DNA from: Blastocatellia bacterium
GTDB lineage: Bacteria; Acidobacteriota; Blastocatellia; UBA7656
Direction: 5' to 3'
DNA: 64,000 bases
NCBI GenBank assembly: GCA_035315885.1
Contig: DATFXM010000058.1
Coordinates: forward strand, 10,317 to 74,316
The position numbers were made by a program, and so were the translations under genes. Shown here piece by piece: positions 1 through 61,976 of this stretch. Every line of letters begins with the position of its first letter. The first letter of the stretch is position 1. The notes beneath the pieces were generated by a model that was not told the origin of the DNA, searched no databases, and worked only from the letters and a program-made list of their open reading frames with translations.

Positions 1-113
1 CTCGGGTTTCGGGTTTCGGGTTCGTTAGATTCAGTATGACTCTATCTCACATTAGGCGTCTTTCGAGTCTCCATCTAATGAACCCTAAACCCTAAACCCG
101 AAACCCTAAACCG
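1..113. repeat. Family-T element. It has a (GGGTTTC)n arm at 4-24, a ~50-nt spacer, and a (CCCTAAA/CCCGAAA)n arm at 83-112. The left arm may be cut by the window edge.
   Basis: GGGTTTCGGGTTTCGGGTTCGTTAGAT (4-30) is the near reverse complement of ATCTAATGAACCCTAAACCCTAAACCCGAAACCC (74-106). Confidence 0.8.
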
Positions 114-247
114 TTTTCCAGCCATTCGTGGTAAAAATCATATTGCGCACCGGGTGGCCGGCACATATTATGTGCGCCTCACTCGGCGAGATCGTGTGGC
201 TCGCCCAGTTCAACAAACAAAAAAACAAAATAACAGGAGCAGATTCG

Positions 248-637
248 ATGAAGAAACTTTTTGTTCTTCTGTCCGTTTTGACGCTGGTGGTTGTTGCCGG
301 CGCCCAGAACAAAAACACTTCGGTCAAGTCCAAAGCCGCCAAAACCGCCACAGACTGTGCCGGGGTTGACGACTCGAAGCTCACCGCGGACGTCAAAGAG
401 AGGCTGTCGAATACGCCGTCTCTCAAGGATTTCAAAATTGATGTTTCAGTGAGCGGCGCGGTCGTGACCCTCACCGGTTCGGTGAAGACTGGACTGAACA
501 AGGGCCTCGCGTCTTCTCAAACCAAGCGTGTCCCATGCGTAAAGAAAGTGGAGAACAAGCTGACAGTGGAGGCTAAGCCTGAAGGCAACAGCAACCGCAA
601 GCCCAAGTCAAAGAAGACTCCGAATAAGAACGCGTAG
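248..637 (+). CDS. Secreted BON-domain protein
   Basis: ORF 128..637 trimmed to ATG 248, which follows AGGAG. Signal peptide MKKLFVLLSVLTLVVVAGA. BON-like segment LTADVKERLSNTPSLKDFKIDVSVSGAVVTLTGSV. Confidence 0.75.
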   Translation: MKKLFVLLSVLTLVVVAGAQNKNTSVKSKAAKTATDCAGVDDSKLTADVKERLSNTPSLKDFKIDVSVSGAVVTLTGSVKTGLNKGLASSQTKRVPCVKKVENKLTVEAKPEGNSNRKPKSKKTPNKNA

Positions 638-643
638 TTTCTA

Positions 644-735
644 ACTTCGTAGTCCCGCTTTGAGCCGAAGCCCATGATGAAGACCCAGTCTCATTCAATC
701 CTGAATGTCTTCCGGCTGAAGGCGGGACTACGAAC
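644..735. repeat. Imperfect 27-nt inverted repeat between convergent genes, possibly a bidirectional terminator-like hairpin. It is not heptamer-based.
   Basis: ACTTCGTAGTCCCGCTTTGAGCCGAAG (644-670) pairs with CTTCCGGCTGAAGGCGGGACTACGAAC (709-735). It lies between the BON stop (635-637) and the DUF885 stop (740-742). There is no T-run. Confidence 0.5.
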
Positions 736-739
736 ACTT

Positions 740-3477: not shown

Positions 3478-3682
3478 GGCGGAAGGTCGGAGATGAGGGG
3501 ATGAGGAGAAGGGCGAAGGGGCCAAGGGGGCGACCCGGAGACGCGGGGAGGAGGGACGCGGGGACGTGGAGAGGAGGAGGTGGCATTATGCTCGGAGACG
3601 GCGAGAAATGCAGACATCGAAGAGGTCTGCTCCGTGTCGCCCCTTCGCCCCTTTGCACCTTCCCCTCATCTCACTTTCCGCC
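3478..3682. repeat. Family-E element. It is a ~45-nt imperfect inverted repeat (GATGAGGR units plus a GGCGAAGGGGC core) with a ~115-nt spacer, in the divergent proC/cysK region.
   Basis: GGCGGAAGGTCGGAGATGAGGGGATGAGGAGAAGGGCGAAGGGGC (3478-3522) pairs with GCCCCTTCGCCCCTTTGCACCTTCCCCTCATCTCACTTTCCGCC (3639-3682). Confidence 0.75.
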
Positions 3683-7675: not shown

Positions 7676-8152
7676 ATGGGCGCTGAAAAGGGTGAACTGG
7701 CCCCGGACTTCGAGCTGCCGAGCCATCTGGGGCAGAAGGTAAAGCTGTCCAGCTATCAAGGAAAGAAAAACGTATTGCTTGCATTTTATCCGTTGGCGTG
7801 GACTGGTGTCTGAACGATGCAGATGCCCTCGTACGAGGCTGACCTTGGCCGATTCGAGAGGCATGAAACCCAGGTACTGGGTATCTCAGTCGATTCAGTT
7901 CCCTGCAATGCCGCGTGGGCCAAGAGCCTCGGCGGTCTTTCGTACGACCTCCTGTCAGATTTCGAACCGAAGGGTGGCGTAGCGAGGATGTATGGGGTGT
8001 ACCGCGAGGAAGGCTACAGCGAGCGAGCCCTCTTTCTGATCGACAAGTCAGGCAAGATCGTCTACAAGGACGTTCACGAAATTGGAGACAAACCCGACAA
8101 CGAGGTGATTCTCAGTTTGCTGGAGACCTTGACTGAGGGGAAGAGGAGATGA
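7676..8152 (+). CDS. AhpE-like 1-Cys peroxiredoxin with in-frame UGA (7811-7813) at the peroxidatic position; candidate selenoprotein, otherwise a nonsense pseudogene
   Basis: ATG 7676 follows GGAGGA. The 45 codons MGAEKGELAPDFELPSHLGQKVKLSSYQGKKNVLLAFYPLAWTGV are followed by TGA, then continue in the same frame as track ORF 7817..8152 (TMQMPSYEADL...LLSDFEPKGGVARMYGV...). P-LAW-T-GV-[TGA] fits the Prx PxxxTxxC motif. Confidence 0.7.
7811..7813 (+). other. In-frame TGA; candidate selenocysteine codon
   Basis: Same frame as ATG 7676 and as ORF 7817..8152. It occupies the Cys slot of PxxxTxxC. Confidence 0.55.
7823..7864 (+). promoter_or_regulatory. Candidate bacterial SECIS-like stem-loop, 10 nt downstream of the UGA
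   Basis: AUGCC-CUCG (7823-7831) can pair with CGAG-A-GGCAU (7855-7864), giving 9 bp with one bulged A. An inner GGCU/GGCC helix has a 6-nt apical loop. Folded by eye only. Confidence 0.3.
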
Positions 8153-8255
8153 GGAGATGAGGAGAAGCGGCGAAGGGACGGGGAGAGACGCAGTGAACCA
8201 AAGGACCTTTCTCGGGTTCGCCTCTTCGCCTCATCTCCTCATCCCCTCATCTCCC
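8143..8255. repeat. Family-E element. (GAGGAGAT)3 plus a GGCGAAGGG arm, a spacer, and a (CCTCATCY)3 arm, between convergent genes.
   Basis: GAGGAGATGAGGAGATGAGGAGAAGCGGCGAAGGG (8143-8177) pairs with CGCCTCTTCGCCTCATCTCCTCATCCCCTCATCTCCC (8219-8255). The Prx TGA (8150-8152) spans the junction of units 1 and 2. The TlpA-like stop (8255-8257) abuts the other arm. Confidence 0.85.
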
Positions 8256-9265
8256 TATTCCTTTCCCAGTTTGCCTAGCAGGTCTCCGATCTTGCTCGAG
8301 AGTCTGGGACCCCTGAGTCCCGTAGCCTTAACGACGCCGTCCTGATCGATCAACACCGCATAGGGGATCGCACGTACCCCATAGAGTCTGGCAATCTTGT
8401 TATTCCATCCTCCGCCGTCGAAGAACTGAGGCCAGGTGATTCCCTGCTCTTTCATATAAGACTTGAAGGCGCGCTCGTCGCGGTCCAGATTCACTCCAAT
8501 CATCACGAATTGTTTGCCGTTGTACTTGCTCCAGATCTTTTTCACGTCGGGCATCTCCGCGCGGCAGGGCCCGCACCACGAAGCCCAAAAATCGAGCACC
8601 ACGACCTTGCCCTTGAAGGCCTCCAGCGACAGGTTCTGACCGTCGAACGACTTCACTTCGAACACCGGCGCCGACGGCTCTCCGGTGTTGCGCGGATTCG
8701 CGAGAATACCTCTGACCTCGCTCGCCTCCGGAGCGTTCGGTTGTTTTTCTAGGAAGGTCTTGAACGCCGCCTTACCCTCTTCGGCTTTGCCGACCTTGAT
8801 CAGCGCGTGACCCAGGTTGTAGTAGGCCTGGGCTATACTCCCCTGACTCATATCGATGGCGCGTCGAAATTCGCTGACTGCCTCGTCGTACACCTTCTTG
8901 TCACTCATCAGAAACAGTGCGACGCCCAAACCGTTATGCAAGCCGGCCTCGTTTGAGGCTTTCAACGCGATTCCCTCTCTGAATGCGCCGGCGGCTTCTT
9001 TAAATTTTTGAGCCTGCAAATAGCTGGAGCCGATCATCTCGAAACATTCAGGGCAGGTTCCCTTTCTCAGCTTGATGGCATTTCTGAATGAGCTTACTGC
9101 TTCGTCGAATCGAGCCGAATGCATTAGTTCGAGTCCGTGGAGAAACGCGGCCTGCGATTCATCTCCGTTCTCCATTGCCGGATTTCGAAACACTTCCTGG
9201 CCGTTCACAGAAGAACCGATTACGACCAGCGACAGAATCACAAGTCTGGCGACCATGAGCCTCAT
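8255..9265 (-). CDS. Secreted TPR-repeat / TlpA-like thiol:disulfide oxidoreductase fusion
   Basis: Signal peptide MRLMVARLVILSLVVIGSSVNG. TPR-like repeats in the N-terminal half. Thioredoxin fold with FWASWCGPCRAEMP (CxxC). Confidence 0.85.
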   Translation of the reverse strand: MRLMVARLVILSLVVIGSSVNGQEVFRNPAMENGDESQAAFLHGLELMHSARFDEAVSSFRNAIKLRKGTCPECFEMIGSSYLQAQKFKEAAGAFREGIALKASNEAGLHNGLGVALFLMSDKKVYDEAVSEFRRAIDMSQGSIAQAYYNLGHALIKVGKAEEGKAAFKTFLEKQPNAPEASEVRGILANPRNTGEPSAPVFEVKSFDGQNLSLEAFKGKVVVLDFWASWCGPCRAEMPDVKKIWSKYNGKQFVMIGVNLDRDERAFKSYMKEQGITWPQFFDGGGWNNKIARLYGVRAIPYAVLIDQDGVVKATGLRGPRLSSKIGDLLGKLGKE

Positions 9266-9319: not shown

Positions 9320-9979
9320 CTAAGTATGCCCGAGCTTCAGCTCGATTCGGCCGGCCTTATCGCCGCCCAGGCCCTTGACTACAAGAAGCAACTCGCCCAG
9401 ATCGGCCAGGTCTGCAGGAAAACGAAAGAAGATCAGTCCGTGGCGAGCATCACCCGGGCTGATCTGCTTTTGCTGATCAATTGCATAGGAAGCGAAATCG
9501 GCCAGTGATTGTTTGTAACCCGCCACATTATACGCGGAAACGCCGTAGTAAGAAATCAAACGTTTGTAAGCCTTGCTGGATTGGGCCTCACTGAGTGCCC
9601 GGCCACTGGACGTAGACAACTCAAAGCGGGCTCTCCGGATATCCAGCGGCGTGTCGGCGCGGTTTTCGATTTCAACCCTCACGGCCAACAGTCCGGCAAG
9701 GAGCAGGTTCGCATCAAACGTATCGAGGAGCGCGGCTTCATCGATGATTGCCACTGCACGTACGGCGATTCTCGGCGACTCGTATTTGGATTCCGGTTCT
9801 GCCGCTGGAAACTTGATGTTGGTTTTGACATTGAAAGGCCGGCCACAGCCGGCGGACAGCAAAATGGCTAGCGCAATGAAGATGACGAGCACAATACGCG
9901 CGGTTTTTTTTCGGATCGTGTCTGGCACGGTCGTGATGCTATTAAAGGGGCGAAATCGTGTCAACTTGCTAGGGTCCAA
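9320..9979 (-). CDS. Hypothetical lipoprotein
   Basis: 219-aa ORF with a lipobox-like LLSAGC after a hydrophobic segment. I recognise no family. Confidence 0.55.
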   Translation of the reverse strand: MDPSKLTRFRPFNSITTVPDTIRKKTARIVLVIFIALAILLSAGCGRPFNVKTNIKFPAAEPESKYESPRIAVRAVAIIDEAALLDTFDANLLLAGLLAVRVEIENRADTPLDIRRARFELSTSSGRALSEAQSSKAYKRLISYYGVSAYNVAGYKQSLADFASYAIDQQKQISPGDARHGLIFFRFPADLADLGELLLVVKGLGGDKAGRIELKLGHT

Positions 9980-10033
9980 ACGCGTATGCTAACGTCACTA
10001 TTTTCGCTTCAGCAGGGGTTTTCAGGCTGAGGA

Positions 10034-10197
10034 GGGTTGGGGTTTAGGGTTTCGAGTTTAGGGTTTCGAGTTGGAGTTTTGAGGACTACGCGGACCCTAA
10101 GTTGAAACCATTCGAAACGGGAAAGTGTCGTTCAGGTTTTTCGGTTAGACCCGGGATCGAAGGCGATCTCGAGAAAGAGCGAACCCTAAACCCCCTC
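10034..10197. repeat. Family-T element in a divergent intergenic region. The G-rich arm is 10034-10084 and the C-rich arm is 10180-10197.
   Basis: GGGTTGGGGTTTAGGGTTTCGAGTTTAGGGTTTCGAG pairs with CGAACCCTAAACCCCCTC. There are four G-tracts within 10034-10063. Confidence 0.8.
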
Positions 10198-10208
10198 GTA
10201 GAGGGCCT

Positions 10209-10730
10209 ATGATTCGATCTTATAAAGGTGTGCAGCCGCAGATTGCGAAAACGGCGTTCATTGCCGAAAACGCGTCGATAATCGGCGACGTGCATATCGG
10301 CGAGCACTCGAGCATCTGGTACAACTGCGTGCTGCGTGGCGATTGCTACTACATTCGCGTAGGCGAGTACTCGAATATTCAGGACGGCACGATCATTCAC
10401 GTGACTAACGGCAGGTTTCCGACAATCATCGGCAACAAAGTAACCGTAGGTCACGGCGTCGTGCTTCACGGCTGCACTGTCAAAGACCGTGCGCTTATCG
10501 GCATAGGTTCAATTGTTCTCGACGAAGTTGTGATCGGCGAGGAGTCTTTTATTGCCGCCGGATCGCTCGTTACACCCGGAACGATCATTCCGCCGCGCTC
10601 GCTGGTCATGGGTTCTCCCGCAAAGGTCAGGCGCCCGGTCACCGATCAGGAGATCGCTCGGATCGATCAGCACTGGGAGCACTACATAGAGTACAAAAAC
10701 CATTACCTGTCCGAAGGTAGTACGCAGTAG
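10209..10730 (+). CDS. Gamma-carbonic-anhydrase-like / hexapeptide-repeat (LbH) protein, YrdA/PaaY-like
   Basis: The N-terminus AFIAENASIIGDVHIGEHSSIWYNCVLRGD and the hexapeptide repeats are characteristic of the family. Confidence 0.85.
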   Translation: MIRSYKGVQPQIAKTAFIAENASIIGDVHIGEHSSIWYNCVLRGDCYYIRVGEYSNIQDGTIIHVTNGRFPTIIGNKVTVGHGVVLHGCTVKDRALIGIGSIVLDEVVIGEESFIAAGSLVTPGTIIPPRSLVMGSPAKVRRPVTDQEIARIDQHWEHYIEYKNHYLSEGSTQ

Positions 10731-10869
10731 GCGGTAGGCAGTTGGGCAGTCGAACTTGGGACGAACGCCAAAGCGGTTTTAGATCCCGCTATTGAAGAAG
10801 AGTTTGATTACTTAGGGTGCAGAGCTGCACAGTGCCTACTGCTTGCCGCCTGCTGCATACTACCTACTG
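10724..10869. repeat. Family-Q element. GCAGTAG-type arm at 10724-10752, spacer, CCTACTG-type arm at 10835-10869.
   Basis: GCAGTAG GCGGTAG GCAGTTG, then CCTACTG CTTGCCG CCTGCTG CATACTA CCTACTG. The stop TAG (10728-10730) of the preceding gene is the last 3 nt of the first unit. Confidence 0.85.
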
Positions 10870-10878
10870 TTAGAGCAG

Positions 10879-12144
10879 ATGATTTCAAGAGTTCGAGGCA
10901 CACAGGACATCGTACCCGCGCGTTTCACCGACAAAGTGGACGCTCAAATCGAGCTGTGGCTACTGGTCGAGCAAACCGCACGAGAGGCGTTCAGACGATA
11001 CGGGTTTGCGGAAATCCGAACCCCGATCATCGAACATACAGAGCTGTTCGATCGAGGTGTTGGAACCGAGACCGATGTCAATAAAGAGATGTACACTTTC
11101 GAAGATGGTGGAGAGTCGGTTTCGTTGCGTCCCGAGTCTACGGCGTCCGCGGTGCGAGCCTACAACGATCAGGGCATGTTCAATCATCCGGGGCTGATCA
11201 AGCTCTTCTACATCGGTCCGCAGTTTCGTCGCGAGCGCCCGCAAAAGGGCCGCTATCGCCAGTTTGGACAAATCGGCGTAGAAGTTCTCGGCCAAAGCGA
11301 TGATCCGGCTATCGAAGCCGAAGTCATTCAGATGCTCGACTGGTATCTGAAAGAGCTCCAGATCACTGACGTCAAGTTGCTCATCAACTCGATCGGCGAT
11401 GAAAAATGCCGACCAGGATACATCGCTACCTTGCGGGAGGCGATCAGTCAGCGACTCGATCGGTTGTGCTCAAATTGTCGCGGGCGATATGAAACAAACC
11501 CGCTCCGGGTTCTCGATTGCAAAGTCGAATCGTGCCAGCCGGTGTTGAACGAGCTGCCTACAATAACCGGGATGTTGTGTGACGAATGCGAGGCACACTT
11601 TTCGTCATTCAAGTCCCTGCTTGCTGAATCGGGAATTGAGTACGAGATCGTGCCGCGACTGGTTCGCGGACTGGACTATTACAAACGCACCACTTTCGAG
11701 CTGATCGGAAGCCGGCTGGGTGCGCAGAACACGATAGTAGGCGGCGGTCGCTATGATGGGCTCTCAGAGCTGATCGGTGGTCGCCCTGCCAAAGGGTTCG
11801 GCTTTGCGTTTGGAATCGAGAGGATGGTGATGAGTCTCCCGCCCGATGCGCTAGCGGGCGTCAAGGTTCGCCCTGACTTGTTCATTGCGTACATCGGTGA
11901 CGAGGCTCGCTTGCATTCCTTCAGGCTCGCGGCGAGGCTCCGCGCTGCGGGACGAAGCGTGGTCGTAGACATCGAGGGTAAGAAACTCAAGAAAGCCCTG
12001 GCGGTGGCTGACAGCGTCGGCTCTAGGTATTCTGTGATCGTGGGCGAAGACGAGATCAAGACCGGCAAATACACCTTGAGGAATATGACTACCGGGGAAC
12101 AAAGGAGCGTTGCGGAGGAGGAGATTTTGAGTTCTGAGTTCTGA
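10879..12144 (+). CDS. hisS: Histidine--tRNA ligase
   Basis: Class II aaRS motifs (RGTQDI, FRYERPQ-like FRRERPQKGRYRQF, GGGRYDGL). The start was moved to ATG 10879, because track start 10843 lies inside the repeat arm. Confidence 0.92.
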   Translation: MISRVRGTQDIVPARFTDKVDAQIELWLLVEQTAREAFRRYGFAEIRTPIIEHTELFDRGVGTETDVNKEMYTFEDGGESVSLRPESTASAVRAYNDQGMFNHPGLIKLFYIGPQFRRERPQKGRYRQFGQIGVEVLGQSDDPAIEAEVIQMLDWYLKELQITDVKLLINSIGDEKCRPGYIATLREAISQRLDRLCSNCRGRYETNPLRVLDCKVESCQPVLNELPTITGMLCDECEAHFSSFKSLLAESGIEYEIVPRLVRGLDYYKRTTFELIGSRLGAQNTIVGGGRYDGLSELIGGRPAKGFGFAFGIERMVMSLPPDALAGVKVRPDLFIAYIGDEARLHSFRLAARLRAAGRSVVVDIEGKKLKKALAVADSVGSRYSVIVGEDEIKTGKYTLRNMTTGEQRSVAEEEILSSEF

Positions 12145-12314
12145 GTCTTGCTTATTCTTGCTGTGGCATTGCTGGCGCTCCTTAGCGGACCGCGGCGGCG
12201 AAAACTCAACACTCTGAAGTCGGACCTTTAAACTCGATCAGATCTCAGATCTCAAATCTCAAATCTAAAAACTCAGGACTCAGGACTCAGAACTCAGAAC
12301 TCAGAACTCAGAAC
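12131..12314. repeat. Family-S element filling the hisS-aspS spacer. (GTTCTGA)2 at 12131-12144, an ~90-nt spacer, and 11 tandem TCARRWC units at 12238-12314.
   Basis: Units TCAGATC x3, TCAAATC x2, TAAAAAC, TCAGGAC x2, TCAGAAC x3, read directly. The hisS TGA (12142-12144) is the end of the second GTTCTGA. Confidence 0.9.
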
Positions 12315-12318
12315 TACC

Positions 12319-16196: not shown

Positions 16197-16244
16197 ATCT
16201 GAGTTCTGAATTCTGAGTTCTGAGCAGTAGCGCCTCTGAGTTCC
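16197..16244. repeat. One-armed family-S array that ends in a family-Q unit
   Basis: ATCTGA GTTCTGA ATTCTGA GTTCTGA GCAGTAG CGCCTCTGAGTTCC, between convergent stops (16176-16178 and 16268-16270). I saw no clear reverse-complement arm. Confidence 0.7.
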
Positions 16245-17765: not shown

Positions 17766-17771
17766 CGACAG

Positions 17772-21674: not shown

Positions 21675-21751
21675 GTTCTGAGTAGGGAAAAGAGAGTTCG
21701 GAGTACTGAGTTCTGACTAGGTAAGCAGACTCAGGACTCAGGACTCAGAAC
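21675..21751. repeat. Family-S element between convergent genes
   Basis: GTTCTGA...GTTCGGA GTACTGA GTTCTGA (21675-21716) and TCAGGAC TCAGGAC TCAGAAC (21731-21751). The last unit overlaps the stop (21751-53) of the minus-strand gene. Confidence 0.85.
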
Positions 21752-45500: not shown

Positions 45501-45933
45501 GTACAACTGGCAGGTGCCGGGCGAGCTTTCAACACAGCGAGGCAAGCTGCGGCTCACTGTGTTTGATGGTGCGGGGAACTCGGCATCAGCGATATCGACG
45601 GGCAAGTTCGAGGTCTGGGCGATGCCGGTCATCACCAGGGTTCAGTACGACTTTGGGGTCAGCGGCGGGAAGGATCAGCTTGAGGTTACCGGGCGGAACT
45701 TCCGAATCGGTGATTCGGTCATCATGGTAAATGATCGTGACTTAGGCAAGATCCGGTTCCAGGACCGTTTCAATACGGGCAACGGAACGTGCAGTCGATT
45801 CTTCAGCGTGGACAAGAAGCTTTCAAAGAAGCTGCCGGCGAAGACTGACGTAAACATTAGAGTGCGCACCAACACCACAGAGCAGATCTCAGCGGGGTTC
45901 AGCTTCAAACGGGACAGACCACCGGGGCAGTAG
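42565..45933 (+). CDS. Secreted S8 (subtilisin-like) serine peptidase with C-terminal Ig-like repeat domains
   Basis: Signal peptide. Catalytic triad contexts VADSGID, SGHGTLNAS, SGTSHSAPAVAGAAAL. G9 linker. Two repeated ~100-aa modules (..ITWDA.DDKGI.. and ..IKWRESDNVGV..). Confidence 0.9.
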   Translation: MARPIRRLPLFFLLITAVFLAGRSPARSDSTPVHPRQKFDSTYRSRTSKHKVIVYAEESGLRDALLESGGQLVEDYGAFALMNAPQAAAEQVRAQSRAGSGIRDDMNMVLLKARQFDTTTDRLMSSSSIGPLEKADRQLYLVQMIGPIKKKWRNAVEANSEVIGYIPNNTLLVRASATGIEQISRLAAEDNSFVQWTGLYFPEYKIAPEISMRSDEDILATIEIAVSDPNDAEVDRALSIGDATPIGGRASVGGISDVRVSIRTSRLPDLARLSNVLWVEPWTPPQLLDEKQDQILAGNYSGSTVSTAGYVNWLQSKGLATTPDFVVDVADSGIDQGDLDPQVIHKDFLNAAEVNRVVYARFVGQLNVPQASAEDISGHGTLNASIVGGFNTKTGFPFVDGDNFHYGLGAHPFVKLGASRIFAPQFTNPDLQELVSNAYRDGARITSNSWGAYNNSYNSDCRIYDALVRDAQPAIDGLQPINIIFSSGNKGAGGHLSVPGNAKNVIDVGATEGLRPGTDGCAIDSTGADNVNQLAVFSSGGPTDDGRKKPDIVAPGTHIQGVQSQSTSFDASGVCGPMNTPAGQTLYTWSSGTSHSAPAVAGAAALVRQYFQQSTGHPPSPAMTKALLLNSTTYVSGSGGGDSLPGDQQGWGLLNVGKTLDGTPRMLIDQDRTLSDAGGSVTIQGSVSDPSKPFRVTLGWTDAPGNPPALGPAINDLDLRVQIGGKTYLGNNFGGEFSVENGSADHLNNVESVWLPAGVTGNFTITVVAVNIAADGVPLNSDSTDQDFALVVYNASSSTGGGGGGGGPVDNPPSVTLRFPAGGETIMVGSTAHITWDAADDKGIQTQVVEFAADGFTFNTIAELGGSARSFDWHVPALPSHLARIKVTVLDGVNLPVSSTNAIPFTVEQGPPDLIPPSVTLLEPNSDSIVGGGNTMIIKWRESDNVGVIERRIELSTDSGESWQLILTLHAPSSGQQQVYNWQVPGELSTQRGKLRLTVFDGAGNSASAISTGKFEVWAMPVITRVQYDFGVSGGKDQLEVTGRNFRIGDSVIMVNDRDLGKIRFQDRFNTGNGTCSRFFSVDKKLSKKLPAKTDVNIRVRTNTTEQISAGFSFKRDRPPGQ

Positions 45934-46136
45934 AGTTCTGAGTTCTGAGTCTGAGTTCTGAGACAATCCCAGAAGGGTTGCGTCGTATAGCCCAGGGTTG
46001 CCGTCCGCGGCTACCCTGCGGTACGTCGCATAATAATCGTCGCAACCCTGAAGGGTTGCGACACCATTCGAAAGCACATTCCGTCGAGGATCACGTTACC
46101 TCTCGATGGCCAAACTCAGCGCTCAGCACTCATCAC
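45934..46136. repeat. Family-S element whose spacer carries a GGGTTGCG-type REP-like module
   Basis: (GTTCTGA)x4-like arm at 45935-45961, immediately after the TAG at 45931-33. REP module at 45967-46062 (GGGTTGCGTCG..CCCAGGGTTGCCGTCCGCGGCTACCCTG..GTCGCAACCCTGAAGGGTTGCGAC). ACTCAGC GCTCAGC ACTCATC arm at 46114-46134, abutting the stop at 46137-39 of the minus-strand gene. Confidence 0.85.
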
Positions 46137-48182: not shown

Positions 48183-48224
48183 GGGGCAAGTTTAGGCGCA
48201 ACACGCACCTGCCGCAAGGAAGTG

Positions 48225-48525
48225 CTGAGTTCAACCCCGAAGGGGTTGCGTCGTCCAGCCCAGCGTTGCCGTCCGCGGCTACCCTGGGTAGAGGCCACCG
48301 CACCCGACGCAACCCTGTAGGGGTTGCGTCTTGAACCGCAAAGCACCGATTCGTGAAGGCGACACCACCACCCCTCAAAGAGTTGCGTATGGATTTGGAA
48401 CCGCCGTTTCGCAGGTCGTTGACGCAACCCTTACAGGGTTGCGTCGGATGCGGTGCCTTTACCCAGGGTAGCCGCGGACGGCAACCCTGGGCTGGACGAC
48501 GCAACCCCTTCGGGGTTGAACTCAG
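48225..48525. repeat. MITE-like palindromic element: ~62-nt terminal inverted repeats of the GGGTTGCG/CCCAGGGTAGCCGCGGACGGCAACCCTGGG module around a ~180-nt core
   Basis: Left end 48229-48290 (GTTCAACCCCGAAGGGGTTGCGTCGTCCAGCCCAGCGTTGCCGTCCGCGGCTACCCTGGGTA) is the reverse complement of 48460-48521 apart from one mismatch. The same module occurs at 45967-46062. Confidence 0.8.
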
Positions 48526-48630
48526 GACTCAGGACTCAGCACTCAGGACTCAGGACTCAGCACTCAGCACACAGCACTCAGCACACAGCACTCAGCACTC
48601 AGGACTCAGCACTCAGCACTCAGCACTCAG
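48520..48630. repeat. 16 tandem heptamers, ACTCAGG/ACTCAGC/ACACAGC (family-S reverse arm)
   Basis: Counted directly, 16 units with no spacers. They read CTGAGTx, carrying TGA, on the minus strand. The array starts 2 nt after the stop (48633-35) of the minus-strand gene. Confidence 0.92.
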
Positions 48631-48632
48631 TC

Positions 48633-54124: not shown

Positions 54125-54349
54125 ATGATAATTCCATTCAGCGAGATTCGATCGTTGATTCCATATTACATCTTTAACGAGTTCGGCCAACTGACTGGGC
54201 AGTATGTTCACTACGACGAAATCATATGTGAGCGAGAGGGCGGCAGGGTCCGCATCTGGCTTAACAAGGAATCGCATGAGGCTCGCGATCCAGAGCGTCT
54301 GATATGCGATTATTCCGAAGACGATTTGAAAGGGCTGCCGAGGCAGTAG
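54125..54349 (+). CDS. Small hypothetical protein (74 aa)
   Basis: Non-repetitive ORF. Its TAG (54347-54349) is the end of the first GCAGTAG unit, the same arrangement as at other bona fide genes. No homology recognised. Confidence 0.35.
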   Translation: MIIPFSEIRSLIPYYIFNEFGQLTGQYVHYDEIICEREGGRVRIWLNKESHEARDPERLICDYSEDDLKGLPRQ

Positions 54350-54467
54350 GCAGTATGCAGTAGACAGTAAGCAGTAGGCAGTAGGCAGTAATACGCGACT
54401 CACTGTTTTGTTAGCAAAGGTCAAAATCGATAGAGCAACCTGCCTACTGCACACTGCCTACTGCCTA
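54343..54467. repeat. Family-Q element. Seven GCAGTAG-type units (54343-54391), spacer, CTGCCTA-type arm (54440-54467).
   Basis: GCAGTAG GCAGTAT GCAGTAG ACAGTAA GCAGTAG GCAGTAG GCAGTAA ... CTGCCTA CTGCACA CTGCCTA CTGCCTA. It is followed by AAGGAG and ATG 54484. Confidence 0.9.
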
Positions 54468-54483
54468 CTTTCAAGGAGAAGAA

Positions 54484-56695: not shown

Positions 56696-57397
56696 ATGAA
56701 AACCTGGGAACTCGCCGGACAGCTTCTGATGTCGCTGGTGTTCGGTACGATCATTGGCATCGAGCGACAGTGGCACCACAAGACGGCCGGCATAAAAACC
56801 AATACGCTGGTGGCAGTAGGCTCGACCGCATTCGGGCTGATTTCTATCCATGGATTTGGCCAAACCAGCAATACGACACAAATCGCAGCCGGCGTTGTGA
56901 CCGGTATCGGCTTCATCGGAGCCGGCGTGATTATGCGCCGCGCGGGCAACGTTCAGGGGATTAACACGGCGGCGACGCTGTGGGCGACGGGGAGCATGGG
57001 GCTCGCGATCGGAGGGGGCTATTATGTCCTGGCGCCACTGCTGCTGATCACCATTCTGACTATTCAGTTTGCGCTGGGGTGGGTAGCTAGTGCGGTTGAT
57101 CGCCGCTCAAAAATGATCAACCCCCTCCTGGATTACCGCCTGAAAGTCACATTCGACGCGGCATCCGTCAATGAAGTGCGATCAATCTGGAGAGATTTAT
57201 CTGTGCGGGACGGTGTTCTGGTGACTGGGTATTCCGAGTCGTTGTTTGACGAAGGTACCTGCAGTCTTGAGGCGTCGTTTCAGGTGACCGATGCTCTGGT
57301 TCAAGAACCTACAATCCTGGCTCAGCGACTGGCTACACTCGTGGGCGTCAAGTCAGCGAGCGTATTCCGCGCTCCACCGGCTGAAAGGGAGTTCTGA
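56696..57397 (+). CDS. MgtC/SapB-family membrane protein
   Basis: GTIIGIERQWHHKTAGIKTNTLV, GVVTGIGFIGAG, with a soluble C-terminal domain. Confidence 0.85.
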   Translation: MKTWELAGQLLMSLVFGTIIGIERQWHHKTAGIKTNTLVAVGSTAFGLISIHGFGQTSNTTQIAAGVVTGIGFIGAGVIMRRAGNVQGINTAATLWATGSMGLAIGGGYYVLAPLLLITILTIQFALGWVASAVDRRSKMINPLLDYRLKVTFDAASVNEVRSIWRDLSVRDGVLVTGYSESLFDEGTCSLEASFQVTDALVQEPTILAQRLATLVGVKSASVFRAPPAEREF

Positions 57398-57410
57398 GAA
57401 CTCAGAACTT
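57389..57410. repeat. Minimal family-S palindrome containing both convergent stop codons
   Basis: AGTTCTGA (57390-97), a GAAC loop, and TCAGAACT (57402-09) form a perfect 8-bp stem. The MgtC-like TGA is at 57395-97, and the aldehyde-DH stop (TCA on the + strand) is at 57402-04. Confidence 0.9.
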
Positions 57411-59159
57411 AGAAAACACTTCGCGTTCTTCGCCAAGCTCTCGCGCAGACGGAGTGATTATCGTCTTTGAGCTAATGCGGATCTTCTGTTTCGCGGCGAT
57501 CGCCGTCTTTACATCCTCTTCGCAGACAAAATCGTAAACCCGCCCGTTCGCGAAGCCATTCGAGGCTCCCGCTACATTCGAGGGCTCATTGTGAGCCGGA
57601 CGCGGTTCGGCCGGAGTTGAACCGCTATGAGGCGGTGATGCCGCAGCGGCGCTCGACGATTCTGAAACGAGCTCCCGTACCGTCTGCTGTTGGTGCTGAT
57701 GCACCTGGCGCTCTGCGAGGAAACGGTCCACTAGCGCGGTGATTGCCGCCCTGTTTACACGCCCTCCGGTTTCTGCCGCCACTTGCACGCGCTCAACCGC
57801 CGCAGCCTGGTTGACCGGTTTGGTCTCGAATGCGATGCGTTTTACGTCGACGAGGTGCCGCGGAGAGATATTGTCAGAAGTGACGTTTCCTCCCCACGAG
57901 CCGCAACCCAGAGTCATAGACGGCTCGAGCTCGGTCGTGAATCCAATCGCACCCAGCGTGGACGGGCTGTTAACTACAACCCTCGACGCCGGCATCAACA
58001 GCCCGAATTCTTTTGCGGCCTCCCGGCTCTGAGTGTGAATCGAAGCCGTGTGCCCCATTCCTCCGTACCTCAGAATCTGTGCGCATCGCTCCGCACCCTC
58101 ACCCAGTCCATCGACAACATAGTAGGCCAGTATCGGCGACAGCTTCTCCATCGAGAGAGGGTGGTCCCGGCCGACGCCGGTCAACTGACATATCATCGCT
58201 CGAGTACCGTCCGGCAGAGTGATGCCGGCCATCCCAGCGATTATGCTCGCGCTCTTTCCAACTATTTTGGGGTTCAGAGTGTTAGTGCCGGTTGCCACCA
58301 CCTTTGTAAGAGCTGCCTGCTGCTCTTCATTTAAGAAGTAAGCACCTTCAGCGGCGAGTCGTTCGCGTACCTGCGCATCAAGCTGCCGGTCAACCACAAT
58401 CGCCTGCTCCGAAGAACAAATGGTTCCGTTGTCGAAGCACTTGCCTGTGAGAATGTCCTTTACGGCCTTCTGCACATTGGCTGTACGTTCGATCATTGCC
58501 GGCACGTTGCCAGGGCCAACTCCAAAAGCGGGTTTCCCCGAGGAATATGCCGCGCGAACCAGACCGATTCCGCCGGTTGCGAGAATCAAGGCGGTTCGTT
58601 TGTGCTTCATCAACTCCTGGGTTCCCTCGATGGTTGCGATAGTCATCGACCCGATTGATCCGGCTGGCAAACCCGCAGCTTCCCCCGCCTCGCGCATCAC
58701 ACGCGCTGTTTCGTTGATGCAGTTTGCGGCGGCCGGATGCGGGCTCAGCACCACGGCATCGCCGGCCTTTATCGCAATCAGTATTTTGAATATTGCGGTC
58801 GAAGTCGGATTAGTTGAGGGAATGATGGCTGCGACGACGCCGCGCGGCGAGGCTACATCAACCACATTTTCCGTTTCGCGAAGAATGCCTACGGTGCGAA
58901 TGGGTTTAATAAAGTTGTATATCTGTTCTGCGGAGAATCGATTTTTTGTTGCTTTATCGGCTGAGTTGCCGTAGCCGGTTTCGAGGTGGGCAATCTCTCC
59001 AAGCCTGAAAGCCTGCTCGGAGGCGACTCGCGCCATCGCGCCAACGATCTCGTCGATCTTTTCCTGAGAGAACGTCGCAAGGGTCTTCTGTGCCTGGTAG
59101 GCGCGCTCCACCAGTTCACGAGCCTGTTCGATCGACTGAGCGTCCTTGTCACTGCTCAT
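57402..59159 (-). CDS. Acylating (CoA-dependent) aldehyde dehydrogenase, EutE/PduP-like, with a ~130-aa C-terminal extension
   Basis: [17 protein letters not shown], catalytic Cys context [11 protein letters not shown]. Tail: an Ala/Ser/Pro-rich linker, then [38 protein letters not shown]. Confidence 0.85.
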
Positions 59160-59168
59160 AAGAACTAA

Positions 59169-59263
59169 GTTCTGACTTCTGAGTCCTGAGTTCTGAGTAG
59201 TGAAATTCTCGAGTTCCGCTTTGCCTGCAAGCGCACTAAGAACTCAGGACTCAGAACTAGAAC
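59169..59263. repeat. Family-S element between the BMC shell gene and the aldehyde dehydrogenase gene
   Basis: GTTCTGA CTTCTGA GTCCTGA GTTCTGA GTAGTGA (59169-59203), and TAAGAAC TCAGGAC TCAGAAC TAGAACT (59237-59263), which abuts the shell-gene stop at 59264-66. Confidence 0.9.
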
Positions 59264-59653
59264 TTACTTAACTCGCTCTTTGCTTGGCTGCAGGGGACGC
59301 TTGCCGTCCTCAGGATTGCCGGCTCCCAGTTGGCCTCGCGCGCTGCCAGATGCAATCTGGTAATTCGCACTGACGATACCGCTGGATTCGAGGACCTGCT
59401 CCAGTTCGCGGTGAGGGCGAGGAATCACGTGCACGCTCACGAGTTCTCCAACCCGGCGCGCGGCGGCTGCGCCTGCATCGGTAGCAGCTTTCACCGCGCC
59501 TACGTCACCCCTCACAAGGACCGTCACGTAGCCTGCACCAATATACTCACGCCCGACGAGCACCACATTGGCGGCCTTCACCATCGCGTCAGCCGCCTCC
59601 ACTGCGCCAACGAACCCCTTAGTCTCTATCATGCCCAGGGCTTCCATGTTCAT
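59264..59653 (-). CDS. Bacterial microcompartment shell protein, BMC-H (PduA/EutM/CcmK fold) with C-terminal tail
   Basis: [30 protein letters not shown]......[21 protein letters not shown] is the canonical BMC (PF00936-type) sequence. Confidence 0.92.
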
Positions 59654-59821
59654 TTATGCCTAACCTCCAGATTGGTCGCGCTCACCCAACACAGCGATTG
59701 TCAGTTCAGCGCGTTTACGAGGCGAATTATCTTAGGTGACTACTGTAAGCGCCAAACTAACAAAAGGCTTCTAGCGAGTCAAGCATGGGGTCTGCACAAC
59801 ATTGACGCAAAGAATCGCGAA

Positions 59822-59950
59822 GACGGTTTCGGGTTTACGGTTCAGGGTTTAGGGTTCGTCAGATAAAAGACTCGGATTGGCAGCAATGCTCGACAAAAGA
59901 CTACTGAATCAAACGAACCCGAAACCGTAAACCCAAAACCCTAAACCGTC
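59822..59950. repeat. Family-T element in the divergent BMC/rodZ region
   Basis: GACGGTTTCGGGTTTACGGTTCAGGGTTTAGGGTTCGTC (59822-59860) pairs with AACGAACCCGAAACCGTAAACCCAAAACCCTAAACCGTC (59912-59950). Confidence 0.85.
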
Positions 59951-60108
59951 TTTGCGGGTCCACTGGCTATGTGCTGCGCAAAACGTTGATGCGGCAATGC
60001 TTGACACCGCCGCGGTCTGACCTTAACATCTCGAACTTGAGCGGGGCCATCCTTTCTACCCCCACGATGAGTGTACTTAATGCAGTCAATGAGAGGTGAG
60101 TTCGGCTG

Positions 60109-61206
60109 ATGCCGACACTTGGTGAAGAGCTCAAACGACTGCGCGAACAGCGCGGCATTTCGCTTGCCGAAATCTCCGAAGCGACTCGAATAGGCACGCG
60201 CTTTTTGAAGGCCATCGAGACCGATAATTTCTCTGTCTTGCCGGGAGGCATCTTCACTCGGTCGTTCATTCGGACGTTTGCAAAGCAAGTCGGAATGGAT
60301 GAAGAACAGGCCATCCTGAAGTATCAGCAGCAAGCCGCCGGAGTCACTCTCGAAGCAGTCCCGTCAATAGAATCAAGCAAGCAGTCAGAAGCGCCGGAAC
60401 AACCTTCCCACCCGGTGAAACCGGCACCGCCAGTTGCTCCGTCCGCCTCGAAGGCTGCCCGCGAGAAGCGTTCTACAGGAGAGAAACAGACACCCAAAAT
60501 AGCGCCCAAACCGGTTGAGGAACCCAAGACGAAAGCCGCTCGACAAGCCAGTGAACCGGGCAAGCCGCGAGCGTACCGTTCTTCGAGCTCAACCAAGCCT
60601 TCGAGCTCAAGCAAGCCGCCCCAGGTGTTCGTTAATCAGAGTGGGCCTCCGAGGAGCTGGTCGCGGACGGTTATAGCTGCCGCAATTCTGCTGTTCGTTG
60701 GCGCCGCCGTTTACACGTTGGTCAAGCAGCTCAACAGAGCGACCTTCGACTCGAAGGGCACTACGACAGTCGTGGAATCCGCATCGAAAAACGCGGGGAC
60801 ATCCCAGAGCCCGAAGCCCGATGTGACTCGGTCCGTTTCTCAAGCCGATAAGTCGTCTAGCACTGCGGCGCCATCAACTACGAAAGTGGAGCCACAGCCG
60901 TCGCCTCAACCCTCATCAGCAAGCAGCTCGGGGGATGACAAGCTCGTGGTGAAGCTTATGGCCTCCAGCGGTGATAGCTGGATCAGGTATCAGGTTGACG
61001 ATTCAAGTCCGATGACGATGACGTTGCGACAAGGGCAGACGCAGGAAATCCCGCCGGCATTGAACCAAATCAAGTTGAACTACGGAGACCGAATGGTATT
61101 GAAGCTCACTATAAACAATCGTGAAGCGACGTTTCCGGCGGATACACCGAAATTCGGCTCACAGATTGTTATCTCTCGAGATAATTTGAAGTCATTCTTT
61201 CAGTAG
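60109..61206 (+). CDS. rodZ: RodZ-like cytoskeleton protein (HTH, TM, DUF4115)
   Basis: N-terminal HTH LGEELKRLREQRGISLAEISEATRIGTRFLKAIE. Pro/Ser/Lys-rich linker, one TM helix, and a C-terminal domain DSWIRYQVD.. Confidence 0.8.
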   Translation: MPTLGEELKRLREQRGISLAEISEATRIGTRFLKAIETDNFSVLPGGIFTRSFIRTFAKQVGMDEEQAILKYQQQAAGVTLEAVPSIESSKQSEAPEQPSHPVKPAPPVAPSASKAAREKRSTGEKQTPKIAPKPVEEPKTKAARQASEPGKPRAYRSSSSTKPSSSSKPPQVFVNQSGPPRSWSRTVIAAAILLFVGAAVYTLVKQLNRATFDSKGTTTVVESASKNAGTSQSPKPDVTRSVSQADKSSSTAAPSTTKVEPQPSPQPSSASSSGDDKLVVKLMASSGDSWIRYQVDDSSPMTMTLRQGQTQEIPPALNQIKLNYGDRMVLKLTINNREATFPADTPKFGSQIVISRDNLKSFFQ

Positions 61207-61234
61207 GCAGTAGGCAGTATGCAGTCTGCAGTAG
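61200..61234. repeat. Family-Q array (5 units) between convergent genes
   Basis: TCAGTAG GCAGTAG GCAGTAT GCAGTCT GCAGTAG. The rodZ TAG (61204-06) is inside the first unit. Confidence 0.85.
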
Positions 61235-61254
61235 CTGCTGCGCGTGCTCGGGGT

Positions 61255-61749
61255 TCAAAGATTTCTGACCATCAGATATCCGTCGTCGCCGCTTGTGTAG
61301 TAGCGTGGCATGCGGCGAATGATCTTGTAGCCGAGTCCCAGATACAATTTCTGAGCAACCTCGTTTGTCGTCCTGACCTCGAGCCTCACGCTTTTTATGG
61401 AGCGGCGCAGAAAACCTTGTTCGACCTCGTGCATAAGGGTGCGGCCGAGACCACGGCGCCGGTGGGTAGGTGAGACGCCGAGTGCTACGACGTGTCCGGT
61501 CTCGTCAGGTTCGATCATTCCGATGACGAAGGCAAGCATTTCGTGGTCAGGTGAAACCGCCTTGTAGCACACTGACTGCGCGTGAGAGAGAAGGTAGCGA
61601 ATCGTTTCTCGGTCGTACGCTTCCCCGTCGGAGAAGCAGCGCTGGTCAAGTCGCCAGCACTCGTTGAGATCGCCGTGTCCCATCTCGAGGACGATAGGCT
61701 CCATGAATGCAGGTTGATTGGTCCTGTCCTTACGACGTTTTGGCCACAT
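61255..61749 (-). CDS. GNAT-family N-acetyltransferase (RimI-like)
   Basis: Acetyl-CoA motif VALGVSPTHRRRGLGRTLM. 164 aa. Confidence 0.8.
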   Translation of the reverse strand: MWPKRRKDRTNQPAFMEPIVLEMGHGDLNECWRLDQRCFSDGEAYDRETIRYLLSHAQSVCYKAVSPDHEMLAFVIGMIEPDETGHVVALGVSPTHRRRGLGRTLMHEVEQGFLRRSIKSVRLEVRTTNEVAQKLYLGLGYKIIRRMPRYYTSGDDGYLMVRNL

Positions 61750-61835
61750 GCATCGAACCAGCTTATGGTCAGATCTACGTGCATATTATACGTCACCGCG
61801 TAGAAGATTACAGAGAAGAAAGTGAAACGCAGATT

Positions 61836-61976
61836 CGGTTTCGGGTTTCGGGTTTAGGGTTTTGGGTTTGCTTTATTCAGCATCCTCATTACGCGGTTTG
61901 CCCATCGATCCAAATCGTTAACCATAGCAATCCCCGCCACCCGAACCCGAAACTCGAAACCCTAAACCCGAAACCG
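61836..61976. repeat. Family-T element in a divergent region. It contains a canonical G-quadruplex motif.
   Basis: CGGTTTCGGGTTTCGGGTTTAGGGTTTTGGGTTTG (61836-61870) pairs with CCCGAACCCGAAACTCGAAACCCTAAACCCGAAACCG (61940-61976). GGGN4GGGN4GGGN4GGG lies at 61843-61866. Confidence 0.88.

Follow-up and report, generated by a model that had tools for sequence, protein, structure and literature searches.

Inverted pairs of tandem heptanucleotide arrays at gene boundaries in a 64-kb stretch of a Blastocatellia genome

Here we describe a set of short tandem repeats in a stretch of 64,000 nucleotides from an uncultured soil Blastocatellia bacterium of the phylum Acidobacteriota (GenBank assembly GCA_035315885.1, contig DATFXM010000058.1, positions 10,317 to 74,316 of the forward strand). 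This whole stretch is referred to below as the window, and roughly one third of its gene-to-gene gaps are filled by heptamer-type repeats. The typical element is an inverted pair, that is, an array of a 7-nt unit, a spacer, and an array of the reverse-complement unit. The elements belong to four families that we call S, Q, T, and E. Several described systems resemble them. In the short tandemly repeated repetitive (STRR) sequences of heterocystous cyanobacteria, the units are CCCCAGT, TTGGTCA, and CAACAGT, and we know of no documentation of systematic pairing or of a stop-codon register in STRR. In filamentous cyanobacteria, STRR heptamer hairpins lie between hupS and hupL and near the 3' ends of genes, and roles in transcript stability, translational coupling, and termination have been proposed for them (PMC2670836). 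As with STRR, several heptamer families are dispersed between genes in the window, some of them forming hairpins between cistrons or near 3' ends. The analogy with STRR that had been drawn in an earlier, sequence-only reading of this DNA is apt. The window differs from STRR sensu stricto in its units, which are CTGAGTY, GCAGTAG, and GGGTTTM, and in its host, a member of the Blastocatellia.

A second precedent comes from Rehm et al. (2015), who found 70-75 convergent inverted pairs of GGGAATC arrays in each Xanthomonas genome (PMC4692102). The G-rich strand of these arrays is the coding strand when they lie within 0-50 bp of a stop codon or overlap it, and the non-coding strand when they lie just upstream of open reading frames (ORFs). 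Array lengths vary across species while the repeat type is preserved, and the authors found no tie to mobile elements or surface genes, obtained a negative answer for phase variation, and left the function unresolved (PMC4692102). The elements of the window are like the GGGAATC and GGGGA(C/T)T arrays of Xanthomonas and Nostoc in having 7-nt tandem units, a strong intergenic bias, convergent pairing, and the same polarity. They are unlike them in that the units differ and only T is rich in G tracts, in that several families are present and split by position, and in that they occur in the Acidobacteriota. Furthermore, the Xanthomonas repeats are under-represented between divergent genes, whereas T in the window is confined to 5' or divergent regions.

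A third system is the TAACTGA arrays that MacGregor (2015) described in Beggiatoaceae, cyanobacteria, and Bacteroidetes, which place a stop in each of the three frames, run over upstream stop codons, lie right against starts without a Shine-Dalgarno sequence, and occur in scattered phyla (PMC4679880). Almost all of them are direct, with one inverted case in 170 sets, and they are oriented toward the downstream start (PMC4679880). The window shares with them forward arrays that have stops in every frame, overlap with stop codons, ends near starts, and units that cross phyla; in the window, however, arrays as a rule form inverted pairs, with the upstream stop as their anchor. According to the account of Mrazek et al. 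(2007) given in PMC4679880, heptanucleotide repeats are the most abundant class of long simple sequence repeats (SSRs) in most genomes, and polymerase slippage was proposed as their source.

The elements also recall the repetitive extragenic palindromes (REPs), bacterial interspersed mosaic elements (BIMEs), and REP doublets forming hairpins (REPINs) of Proteobacteria in being dispersed intergenic palindromes located at 3' ends and between cistrons. As in mosaic REP/BIME cases, other modules are nested in two of them (S4 and S5 below). REPs, BIMEs, and REPINs are themselves transcribed and hairpin-forming, and REPINs are inverted doublets with a spacer. However, a REP arm is one imperfect palindrome, 20-40 nt long, in which GTAG is conserved and which comes with a cognate REP-associated tyrosine transposase (RAYT), whereas the arms described here are tandem heptamers in variable number that are not self-complementary. 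Thus, the elements are not REP/BIME sensu stricto, as had been stated, and a check of the window for the cognate RAYT or another Y1 transposase was negative for all of its approximately 55 ORFs. Nor are they CRISPR arrays, as had likewise been stated, since the units are 7-8 nt long and contiguous, unlike the 23-50-nt direct repeats of CRISPR with their unique spacers of comparable size, and the arms are inverted rather than direct. Given that STRR, the Xanthomonas GGGAATC pairs, and the TAACTGA arrays are already published, these are not a new kind of element, and the view of the sequence-only reading that paired, gene-end-specific heptamer arrays were undescribed is not supported (PMC4692102, PMC2670836, PMC4679880). 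The novelty lies in the units, in the phylum, in the finding that the S and Q units turn up again, in like polarity, in viral contigs and across many phyla, and in the split of families by position. Literature searches returned nothing relevant that contains literal S or Q arrays and nothing on such repeats in Acidobacteria.

Tandem Repeats Finder (TRF) recovers period-7 or period-14 arrays (period-8 at both E sites) at essentially all of the 16 sites where repeats had been reported in the window. We also read all 16 sites directly, letter by letter, and the repeat units were confirmed, so the division into four families is upheld. The S unit is CTGAGTT, CTGAGTC, or CTGAGTG, the Q unit is GCAGTAG, and the T unit is GGGTTTA or GGGTTTC. 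E is the exception to the 7-nt rule and consists of 8-nt GAGGAGAT units followed by a GGCGAAGGG core. Copy numbers of the period-7 arrays as determined by TRF range from 2.3 to 15.9, and within the 64 kb a single unit is dispersed over several sites (7 for S, 3 for Q, and 4 for T). The window, which has a GC content of 56%, contains 20 non-overlapping period-7/14 arrays. By comparison, 30 dinucleotide-preserving shuffles of it contain 1.3 on average and 4 at most, an enrichment of approximately 15-fold. A gene map built from long ORFs backed by Pfam assigns 90.3% of the window to coding and 9.7% to non-coding sequence. That non-coding 9.7% holds 22 of the 27 arrays of period 7, 8, 14, or 16, consistent with the intergenic restriction noted in the sequence-only reading. 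Two of the remaining five merely overlap the 3' ends of genes (hisS and an AhpC-like gene), and three are chance matches of 2-2.6 copies. The arrays are concentrated at 0-22 kb and 45-62 kb of the window, and the 23 kb from 22000 to 45000, which encode Lon, NrdR, a sigma/anti-sigma pair, and nuo genes, contain no heptamer array.

Inverted pairs account for 14 of the 16 sites and dominate the inverted-repeat list of the window, and their RNA folding z-scores range from -2.4 to -26 on both strands. The description of every site as an inverted pair has to be given up for S 16197-16244 and Q 61200-61234, which have a single orientation without a reverse-complement arm and folding z-scores near 0. 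Further corrections apply. One S element (S6) is a mini-palindrome, the right arm of T2 has approximately 2 units, and the T and E arms are fixed composites of approximately 45 nt with conserved borders, unlike open-ended arrays (GGGTTCGTTAGAT, at the inner edge of T arms, is an example of a shared border). The spacers are each unique in sequence and length, from 4 to approximately 290 nt, and S and Q arms contain 1-16 units. The marked inequality of arms that had been pointed out is borne out, with 2.7 versus 11 units at hisS/aspS and 1 versus 16 units near 48.5 kb. The two arms of one pair share unit variants more often than permuted pairs do (0.486 versus 0.344, p = 0.008), and at one locus a G-type pair lies next to a C-type pair.

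The 16 elements, in order along the window, are listed here; paired z-scores are those of folding on the two strands.

T1, 1-113: GGGTTTN inverted pair with left arm 1-23, cut by the window edge, and right arm 80-113, which is a canonical G-quadruplex (G4) motif; 15 nt upstream of a BON-domain gene (128-637, + strand); z -7.7/-6.4.
E1, 3478-3682: purine-rich arm (GGAGATGAGGGGATGAGGAGAAGGGCGAAGGGG...), spacer, and pyrimidine-rich arm 3630-3682, between divergent proC-like (- strand) and PALP (+ strand) genes; z -6.6/-7.2.
E2, 8134-8256: arm 8134-8180 of three GAGGAGAT units plus GCGGCGAAGGG, with its complement at 8206-8256, between convergent AhpC-like (+ strand) and TPR-thioredoxin (- strand) genes; stop codons in or abutting the arms are TGA 8150-8152 and TAG, the reverse complement of 8255-8257; z -4.7/-6.8.
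T2, 10034-10200: left arm 10034-10075 and vestigial right arm 10180-10200 of approximately 2 units, flanked by a promoter-like block that is conserved (9936-9996) and by the start of the hexapeptide-transferase gene (10209); z -3.5/-2.4.
Q1, 10720-10872: (GCAGTAG)-type arm 10720-10750 holding the stop TAG (10728-10730) of the hexapeptide-transferase (hexapep) gene, and complementary arm 10833-10869, ending 10 nt before the likely hisS ATG (10880); z -5.0/-3.6.
S1, 12128-12315: (GAGTTCT)2.7 arm 12128-12147 holding the hisS stop TGA (12142-12144), 90-nt spacer, and 11-unit complementary arm 12238-12315, ending 3 nt before the aspS ATG (12319); z -5.4/-4.5.
S2, 16197-16244, + strand: 4 units, CAGTAGCGCC, and 1 unit in one orientation, 19 nt past an amidohydrolase stop; z +0.3/+1.5.
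S3, 21675-21750: degenerate forward arm 21675-21716, 7 nt past the stop of a T2SSE ATPase gene, and complementary arm 21728-21750, abutting the stop (21751) of a convergent SLT/LysM gene; z -2.9/-3.2.
S4, 45931-46137: forward arm 45931-45962 opening with the stop TAG (45931-45933) of an S8-protease gene, 150-nt spacer with GCAACCC..GGGTTGC hairpin modules, and complementary arm 46112-46137, abutting a convergent TPR stop; z -7.7/-8.5.
S5, 48221-48632: one forward unit (48225-48232), a nested near-perfect palindrome of approximately 310 nt (48221-48529), and 16-unit complementary arm 48518-48631, from 1 nt past the stop of a PrcB-like gene on the minus strand; z -19.8/-25.8.
Q2, 54341-54472: 7-unit GCAGTAG arm 54341-54391 holding the stop of a 74-aa ORF (54125-54349), and complementary arm 54440-54470, 13 nt before an aminotransferase ATG (54484) with AAGGAG between; z -6.2/-6.5.
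S6, 57386-57412: mini-palindrome GAGTTCTGAGAACTCAGAAC with approximately 1.4 units per arm and both convergent stops inside, MgtC TGA 57395-57397 and that of an aldehyde dehydrogenase gene (reverse complement of 57402-57404); z -3.1/-4.0.
S7, 59166-59263: arms 59166-59199 and 59235-59263, spanning on the minus strand the full gap from the stop (59264) of a bacterial microcompartment (BMC) shell gene to 7 nt before the aldehyde dehydrogenase start (59159); z -5.3/-5.5.
T3, 59816-59956: 49-nt arms 59816-59864 and 59908-59956, centred between divergent BMC (- strand) and HTH_25 (+ strand) genes, with promoter-like sites outside on both sides; z -7.6.
Q3, 61200-61234, + strand: one GCAGTAG-type arm of 4.9 units with the HTH_25 stop TAG (61204-61206) in its first unit, followed by a vestigial complementary unit, CTGCTGC; z -0.6/+0.4.
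T4, 61830-61985: arms 61830-61872, a canonical G4 motif, and 61926-61985, centred (81/78 nt) between divergent GNAT (- strand) and BNR-repeat (+ strand) genes; z -5.8/-3.5.

The polarity of these elements is uniform. In all 14 pairs, the G/U-rich arm (CTGAGTT, GCAGTAG, GGGTTTA, or GAGGAGAT) lies 5' and the A/C-rich arm lies 3', and this is identical when read from either strand. Since 7 mod 3 is 1 and 8 mod 3 is 2, the G/U-rich arms of S, Q, and E give stops in three frames. Outer arms of S, Q, and E2 that follow a gene begin 0-19 nt from that gene's stop codon or contain it. At four of the five junctions between tandem genes (those leading into aspS, hisS, the aminotransferase gene, and the aldehyde dehydrogenase gene), the A/C-rich arm ends 4-14 nt before the next start and the element occupies the entire stop-to-start gap. 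At the fifth, S5, the inner arm is approximately 43 nt from the TPR start. Of the nine convergent junctions, an array is present at six and an ordinary hairpin at one, and the gap at the remaining two is at most 9 nt. The ordinary hairpin (646-734; a 22-bp stem with 91% complementarity and a loop of 45 nt) occupies the convergent junction of the BON-domain gene with a DUF885 gene, which is the sole convergent junction with room but without a heptamer array.

Placement also separates the families. S follows stop codons at 7 of 7 sites and Q at 3 of 3, T lies in 5' or divergent regions at 4 of 4, and E occurs once in each setting. The proposal that S and Q occur only 3' of genes and T only in 5' or divergent regions thus stands without exception (10 versus 4 sites; Fisher p ~0.001 by hand calculation), with the status of Q2 as 3' of a gene depending on a predicted ORF, because the 74-aa ORF that precedes it has no Pfam match. 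The rule of Rehm et al. that the G-rich strand is coding after stops or non-coding before starts is followed by 14 of 14 pairs, and S, Q, and further families obey it in other genomes as well.

T2 is probably located in the 5' untranslated region (UTR) of a hexapep-hisS-aspS operon, in which T2, Q1, and S1 follow one another in series, so that three families are present in one housekeeping operon. Therefore, they cannot all be full terminators. Canonical terminators, consisting of a short GC-rich hairpin with a 3-8 nt loop and a U-tract behind it, are no more common in the window than in shuffles (21 versus 20.1, and 20 versus 20.1), so something else must mark 3' ends. The terminator scan found none at array pairs, and its sole match within an element is an interior module of S4. 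Taking as the G4 criterion at least 4 G3 tracts with loops of 7 nt or less, there are two canonical G4 motifs in the window, and both are in T arms (T1 right and T4 left, or 2 of 8 T arms); 4 of 8 T arms carry four G3 tracts. ACTCAGG units create repeated AGGA motifs. Rfam gives no match anywhere in the window at gathering score.

Two of the S elements contain additional repeats. The palindrome nested in S5 (48221-48529) has 75-nt arms at 96% and 35-nt arms at 94%, and is composed of hairpin modules (GACGCAACCC-loop-GGGTTGCGTC) together with a CCAGGGTAGCCGCGGACGGCAACCCTGG segment. A half-copy of it, 87% identical, is found in the S4 spacer (45964-46018). These nested modules are a second, unrelated repeat family, REP- or MITE-like (MITE, miniature inverted-repeat transposable element), inside heptamer pairs. 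The GCAACCCN4GGGTTGC module pattern has one exact match in the window and none in 227 loci.

Comparison with relatives indicates how these arrays are distributed. The best named AspS homologues are all from Blastocatellia or Acidobacteriota metagenome-assembled genomes (MAGs), the nearest being 82% identical. A cyanobacterial or planctomycete source, which the 56% GC and the BMC genes might have suggested, was rejected on these homologues. The exact AspS protein of the window has no record of its own, and its 90% cluster otherwise consists of protein-only records. Three related lineages with 80-82% AspS identity (loci L120, L123, and L124) share the gene order TPR-thioredoxin, hypothetical, hexapep, hisS, aspS. 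In two of the three, the gaps are short (40-125 nt) and no period-7 array is found over approximately 21 kb. The orthologous hisS-aspS gap in the relatives is 40-52 nt and holds no array where the window has S1, and T2 is absent from the orthologous regions of all three. The third relative, L124 (GCA_037024495.1), has the pair (ATTGCGG)4.4...(CAATCCG)4.6 at 8582-8669 in the hexapep-hisS gap, where the window has Q1. It has a second pair, (GATTTTA)...(AATCCAA), at 20580-20816 in the divergent region upstream of the T2SSE ATPase gene. In both L124 pairs, the G/T-rich arm comes first, as in the window. Thus, the arrays are lineage-specific, and at an orthologous position a relative can carry another unit. 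In five assemblies of the L124 population that are 99.97-100% identical, array copy number is unchanged and one single-nucleotide polymorphism is seen, so the arrays are not hypervariable at that timescale. The copy-number change by slippage that the sequence-only reading considered plausible is still plausible, but it is not seen in these assemblies. L232, a contig of the L124 population, breaks inside an array.

The S unit recurs widely. An exact scan for (GAGTYCT)3.4 with one genome per species finds at least 119 loci in Acidobacteriota, Planctomycetota, Chloroflexota, Cyanobacteriota, Bacteroidota, Verrucomicrobiota, Nitrospirota, Gemmatimonadota, Actinomycetota, the candidate phyla radiation (CPR), and others, and the matches listed include closed chromosomes and isolates, the latter with Anaerophaga thermohalophila DSM 12881, Marinilabilia salmonicolor, Longilinea arvoryzae, and Nostoc/Anabaena strains among them. 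Among these listed matches, S pairs with the G/U-rich arm first (FR) outnumber those in the reverse arrangement (RF) by 22 to 3, and lone S arrays have a co-oriented gene end within 30 nt of their 5' side in 19 cases versus a gene start in 4. The ends of S arrays grade into related heptamers, as expected if repeats mutate and re-expand. In Pararobbsia alpina chromosome 2 (L092), as well as in L019, L005, L002, and L119, the S array is continuous with long arrays of one-mismatch or unrelated heptamers (for example, CATTCGC-CTGAGTC x20-CTGAGCA, and units such as CTGAGAC, CTGCGTC, CTGAGGC, and CTGAATC). Such continuous arrays show unit turnover inside a single array.

The Q unit behaves likewise. 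(GCAGTAG)3 is present in 54 viral or proviral contigs, where its pairs are FR in 19 cases and RF in 3, all three of the latter with arms more than 340 nt apart. Lone Q arrays have a gene end within 30 nt of their 5' side in 21 cases versus a gene start in 1. Two control heptamers are found in 18 and 3 viral contigs, versus 54 for Q. Tandem heptamers in general occur much more often than chance predicts, and Q, though common, is not unique. Other heptamer families located just past stop codons in the fetched loci have more G than C on the sense strand in 28 cases versus 10 (p = 0.005). Stop-free units past stops give 11 versus 5, which is not significant alone, and pairs of the stop-free unit GCAGTCG are FR by 4 to 0. 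Stops in three frames were considered as the sole cause of polarity, an explanation weakened by the stop-free ATTGCGG of L124, GCAGTCG, and the GGGAATC of Rehm et al., all of which keep the polarity. For T, a metagenome scan yields one true element, 144 nt upstream of a gene start in a soil contig (L256). The T-arm scan was swamped by telomere-like (TTTAGGG)n satellites, and many contigs of Antarctic-lake and sea-ice type (L233-L352) are long degenerate (TTTAGGG)n satellites. These are probably eukaryotic telomeric or subtelomeric DNA unrelated to bacterial T elements.

Some neighbouring features of the window deserve mention. The AhpC/TSA-like ORF (7817-8152) matches its Pfam profile only from position 44 of 124 and, judging from this partial match, may be truncated or frameshifted. 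Its last codons and stop come from E2, and those of hisS come from S1. The BMC shell-protein gene lies directly upstream of the aldehyde-dehydrogenase-like gene (57402-59653), with S7 between them and S6 after, and the two may constitute a microcompartment locus. The block at 9936-9996 is a back-to-back promoter-like sequence conserved in all of the relatives (L120 7873-7960, L123, and L124). On the minus strand it reads TTGACA-17-TAGCAT, and its equivalent in L120, TTGACA-17-TAGGAT, is 7 nt from an ATG, pointing to a possible leaderless mRNA. The plus strand carries an extended -10-like sequence, TGCTAACGT. ORF 9320-9979 is probably over-extended at its 5' end.

We consider it very probable that the elements are heptanucleotide SSR palindromes of the STRR or long-SSR kind. 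Whether the pairs are transcribed, register-tolerant RNA hairpins that act at gene boundaries is, in our judgement, an evenly balanced question. The analysis shows the anatomy and polarity of the elements, their placement at gene boundaries, their potential to fold, their lineage specificity, and their distribution, whereas transcription, any effect on RNA, and the way in which the arrays are generated are inferred. A heptamer array would arise and grow through replication slippage, an inverted copy would be made via intramolecular template switching or conversion, and the array pair would spread outward until coding sequence is met. The pair would then be transcribed with the flanking genes and would fold into a long hairpin that tolerates many registers. 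Its G/U-rich arm would start at the stop codon and, in S, Q, and E, supply stops in all frames, while its A/C-rich arm would face the next start codon or the converging gene. At convergent junctions, the hairpin may act as a 3'-end or terminator structure that is independent of a U-tract. Inside operons (hexapep-hisS-aspS and BMC-aldehyde dehydrogenase), it may serve as an intercistronic stabiliser or decoupler of the REP/BIME type. T, which is G4-capable and located in 5' UTRs or divergent promoters, may act via structure at the level of the DNA or the 5' UTR.

We favour this RNA-hairpin role because the elements run from stop to start or from stop to stop, nearly all convergent junctions with room are occupied, and canonical terminators are lacking, and because of the strong folding potential, the matched arm variants, and the published analogies. 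Several findings weigh on the other side. The array hairpins have no U-tracts, and of 6 unidirectional contexts only 4 show better folding of the transcribed strand than of its opposite. The lengths of the two arms do not correlate (rho -0.15 and 0.20), nor do their variants mirror each other unit by unit; therefore, selection for a perfect stem is weak. Two sites, S2 and Q3, are single arms. Since close relatives lack the arrays, any function is dispensable. Furthermore, a model based on the hairpin alone does not predict the strict G/U-rich-5' polarity, and slippage alone does not explain the same heptamers across phyla. Some narrower proposals were tried and rejected. Stem selection acting via balanced arms or mirrored unit variants was dropped, as neither was found. 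Rho-loading on a C-rich free arm was dropped because the long arm is A/C-rich in S1 but G/U-rich in S5. The use of different families within an operon to avoid cross-pairing was dropped because S elements sit on either side of two genes, TPR (S5 and S4) and aldehyde dehydrogenase (S7 and S6).

As the main rival reading, the arrays may instead be a functionless by-product of lineage-specific heptamer slippage and template switching, which would inflate them wherever they are harmless. Polarity and stop-hugging would then be only the footprint of purifying selection, in that arrays with stops in all frames can invade 3' ends without extending an ORF, and A/C-rich unstructured sequence is tolerated before starts. 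MacGregor argues the same tolerance for TAACTGA (PMC4679880). Such an origin is consistent with the absence of arrays from relatives with identical synteny, the different family at an orthologous gap, the unbalanced and uncorrelated arms, the degenerate ends that grade into related heptamers in many genomes, and the housekeeping nature of the flanking genes. However, random seeding would give different units, whereas S recurs at 7, Q at 3, and T at 4 sites within 64 kb and the units recur in many phyla. In addition, stop-free families share the direction of polarity (although the excess of G over C is not significant alone; GCAGTCG is FR in every pair), the positional split of T versus S and Q is left unexplained, and nearly every convergent junction with room holds an array. 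We therefore regard a by-product as rather unlikely. It seems less likely still that the arrays are sets of binding sites for a sequence-specific factor, with family identity encoding which factor binds. Acting on DNA, the factor might be a protein of the nucleoid or gyrase type, or a cruciform or G4 could absorb supercoils, positive at convergent and negative at divergent junctions; on RNA, it could be S1 or a CsrA-like or Hfq-like protein. BIMEs bind gyrase and IHF. A polarity that is set along the 5'-3' single strand and is identical on both strands, family-specific positions (T divergent, S and Q after stops), units that recur across phyla, the repeated AGGA motifs of ACTCAGG units, and the location of the only two canonical G4 motifs of the window in T arms would all suit bound factors. 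Yet there is no candidate protein so far and the window encodes none, the units degenerate freely, just 2 of the 8 T arms qualify as canonical G4 motifs, and copy numbers of 1 to 46 are odd for a defined site.

Mobility is a further explanation, under which the elements would be non-autonomous, MITE- or REPIN-like, with heptamer terminal inverted repeats mobilised in trans by a transposase or RAYT. Relative to the related lineages they do resemble insertions of 130-170 nt, T and E arms are fixed composites with conserved borders, and an unrelated contig from a soil metagenome holds a true T element. Inverted arms with a spacer recall REPINs, and a palindromic module distinct from the arms lies inside S4 and S5. 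What makes mobility very improbable is that the conserved interior and defined length of MITEs are not seen, given the unique spacers and the 1-16 units of S and Q arms, and that the arms are not individually palindromic, unlike REPs. Moreover, no target-site duplication is visible by eye at E or T borders, where the orthologous empty sites are too diverged to define insertion borders, and none of the approximately 55 window ORFs encodes a transposase, recombinase, Y1, or RAYT protein. Rehm et al. likewise found no association with mobile elements (PMC4692102). Phase variation, in which copy-number change near starts or promoters would switch neighbouring genes on and off, would account for unequal arms and for tandem repeats directly upstream of starts or in promoter regions. 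It merits very little credence, since the neighbours are housekeeping genes (hisS, aspS, aminotransferase), most arrays follow stop codons, copy number is constant across the five near-identical assemblies of a related population, and Rehm et al. reached the same negative (PMC4692102). Finally, the source is a MAG contig, related contigs (L006, L038, L082, and L232) break inside arrays, and long arrays may have the wrong copy number. Nevertheless, an artefact of short-read assembly is scarcely credible, because the arrays are frame-consistent with stop and start codons at their edges, they also occur in closed chromosomes, long-read MAGs, and isolates (NZ_CP123230.1, NZ_OZ221288.1, and OY775912.1), and five independent assemblies agree on one pair.

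A bolder proposal can also be made. Heptamer pairs might be a widespread, unnamed form of gene-boundary punctuation in bacteria without canonical terminators of hairpin and U-tract, with a conserved sequence-specific factor that writes or reads a limited set of units (CTGAGTY, GCAGTAG, and others) shared across phyla. In such punctuation, the G/U-rich arm could always be 5' and anchored on the stop, with S and Q dedicated to 3' ends and T to promoter or 5' regions. We hold this to be improbable.

The function of heptamer arrays such as STRR, GGGAATC, and TAACTGA has been a question since approximately 1990. To this question, the window adds a phylum without a described example, the Acidobacteria, and a compact test case in which three families lie in one housekeeping operon. 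If the arrays are functionless, they still cause breaks in MAG assemblies, mis-called gene ends (the C-termini of hisS and the AhpC-like gene are array-encoded), and spurious ORFs. The G/U-rich-first polarity and the anchoring on stop codons extend to many unrelated units. Taken together with the recurrence of units across phyla and the swap of the unit at an orthologous gap, this argues that position and architecture matter more than sequence.

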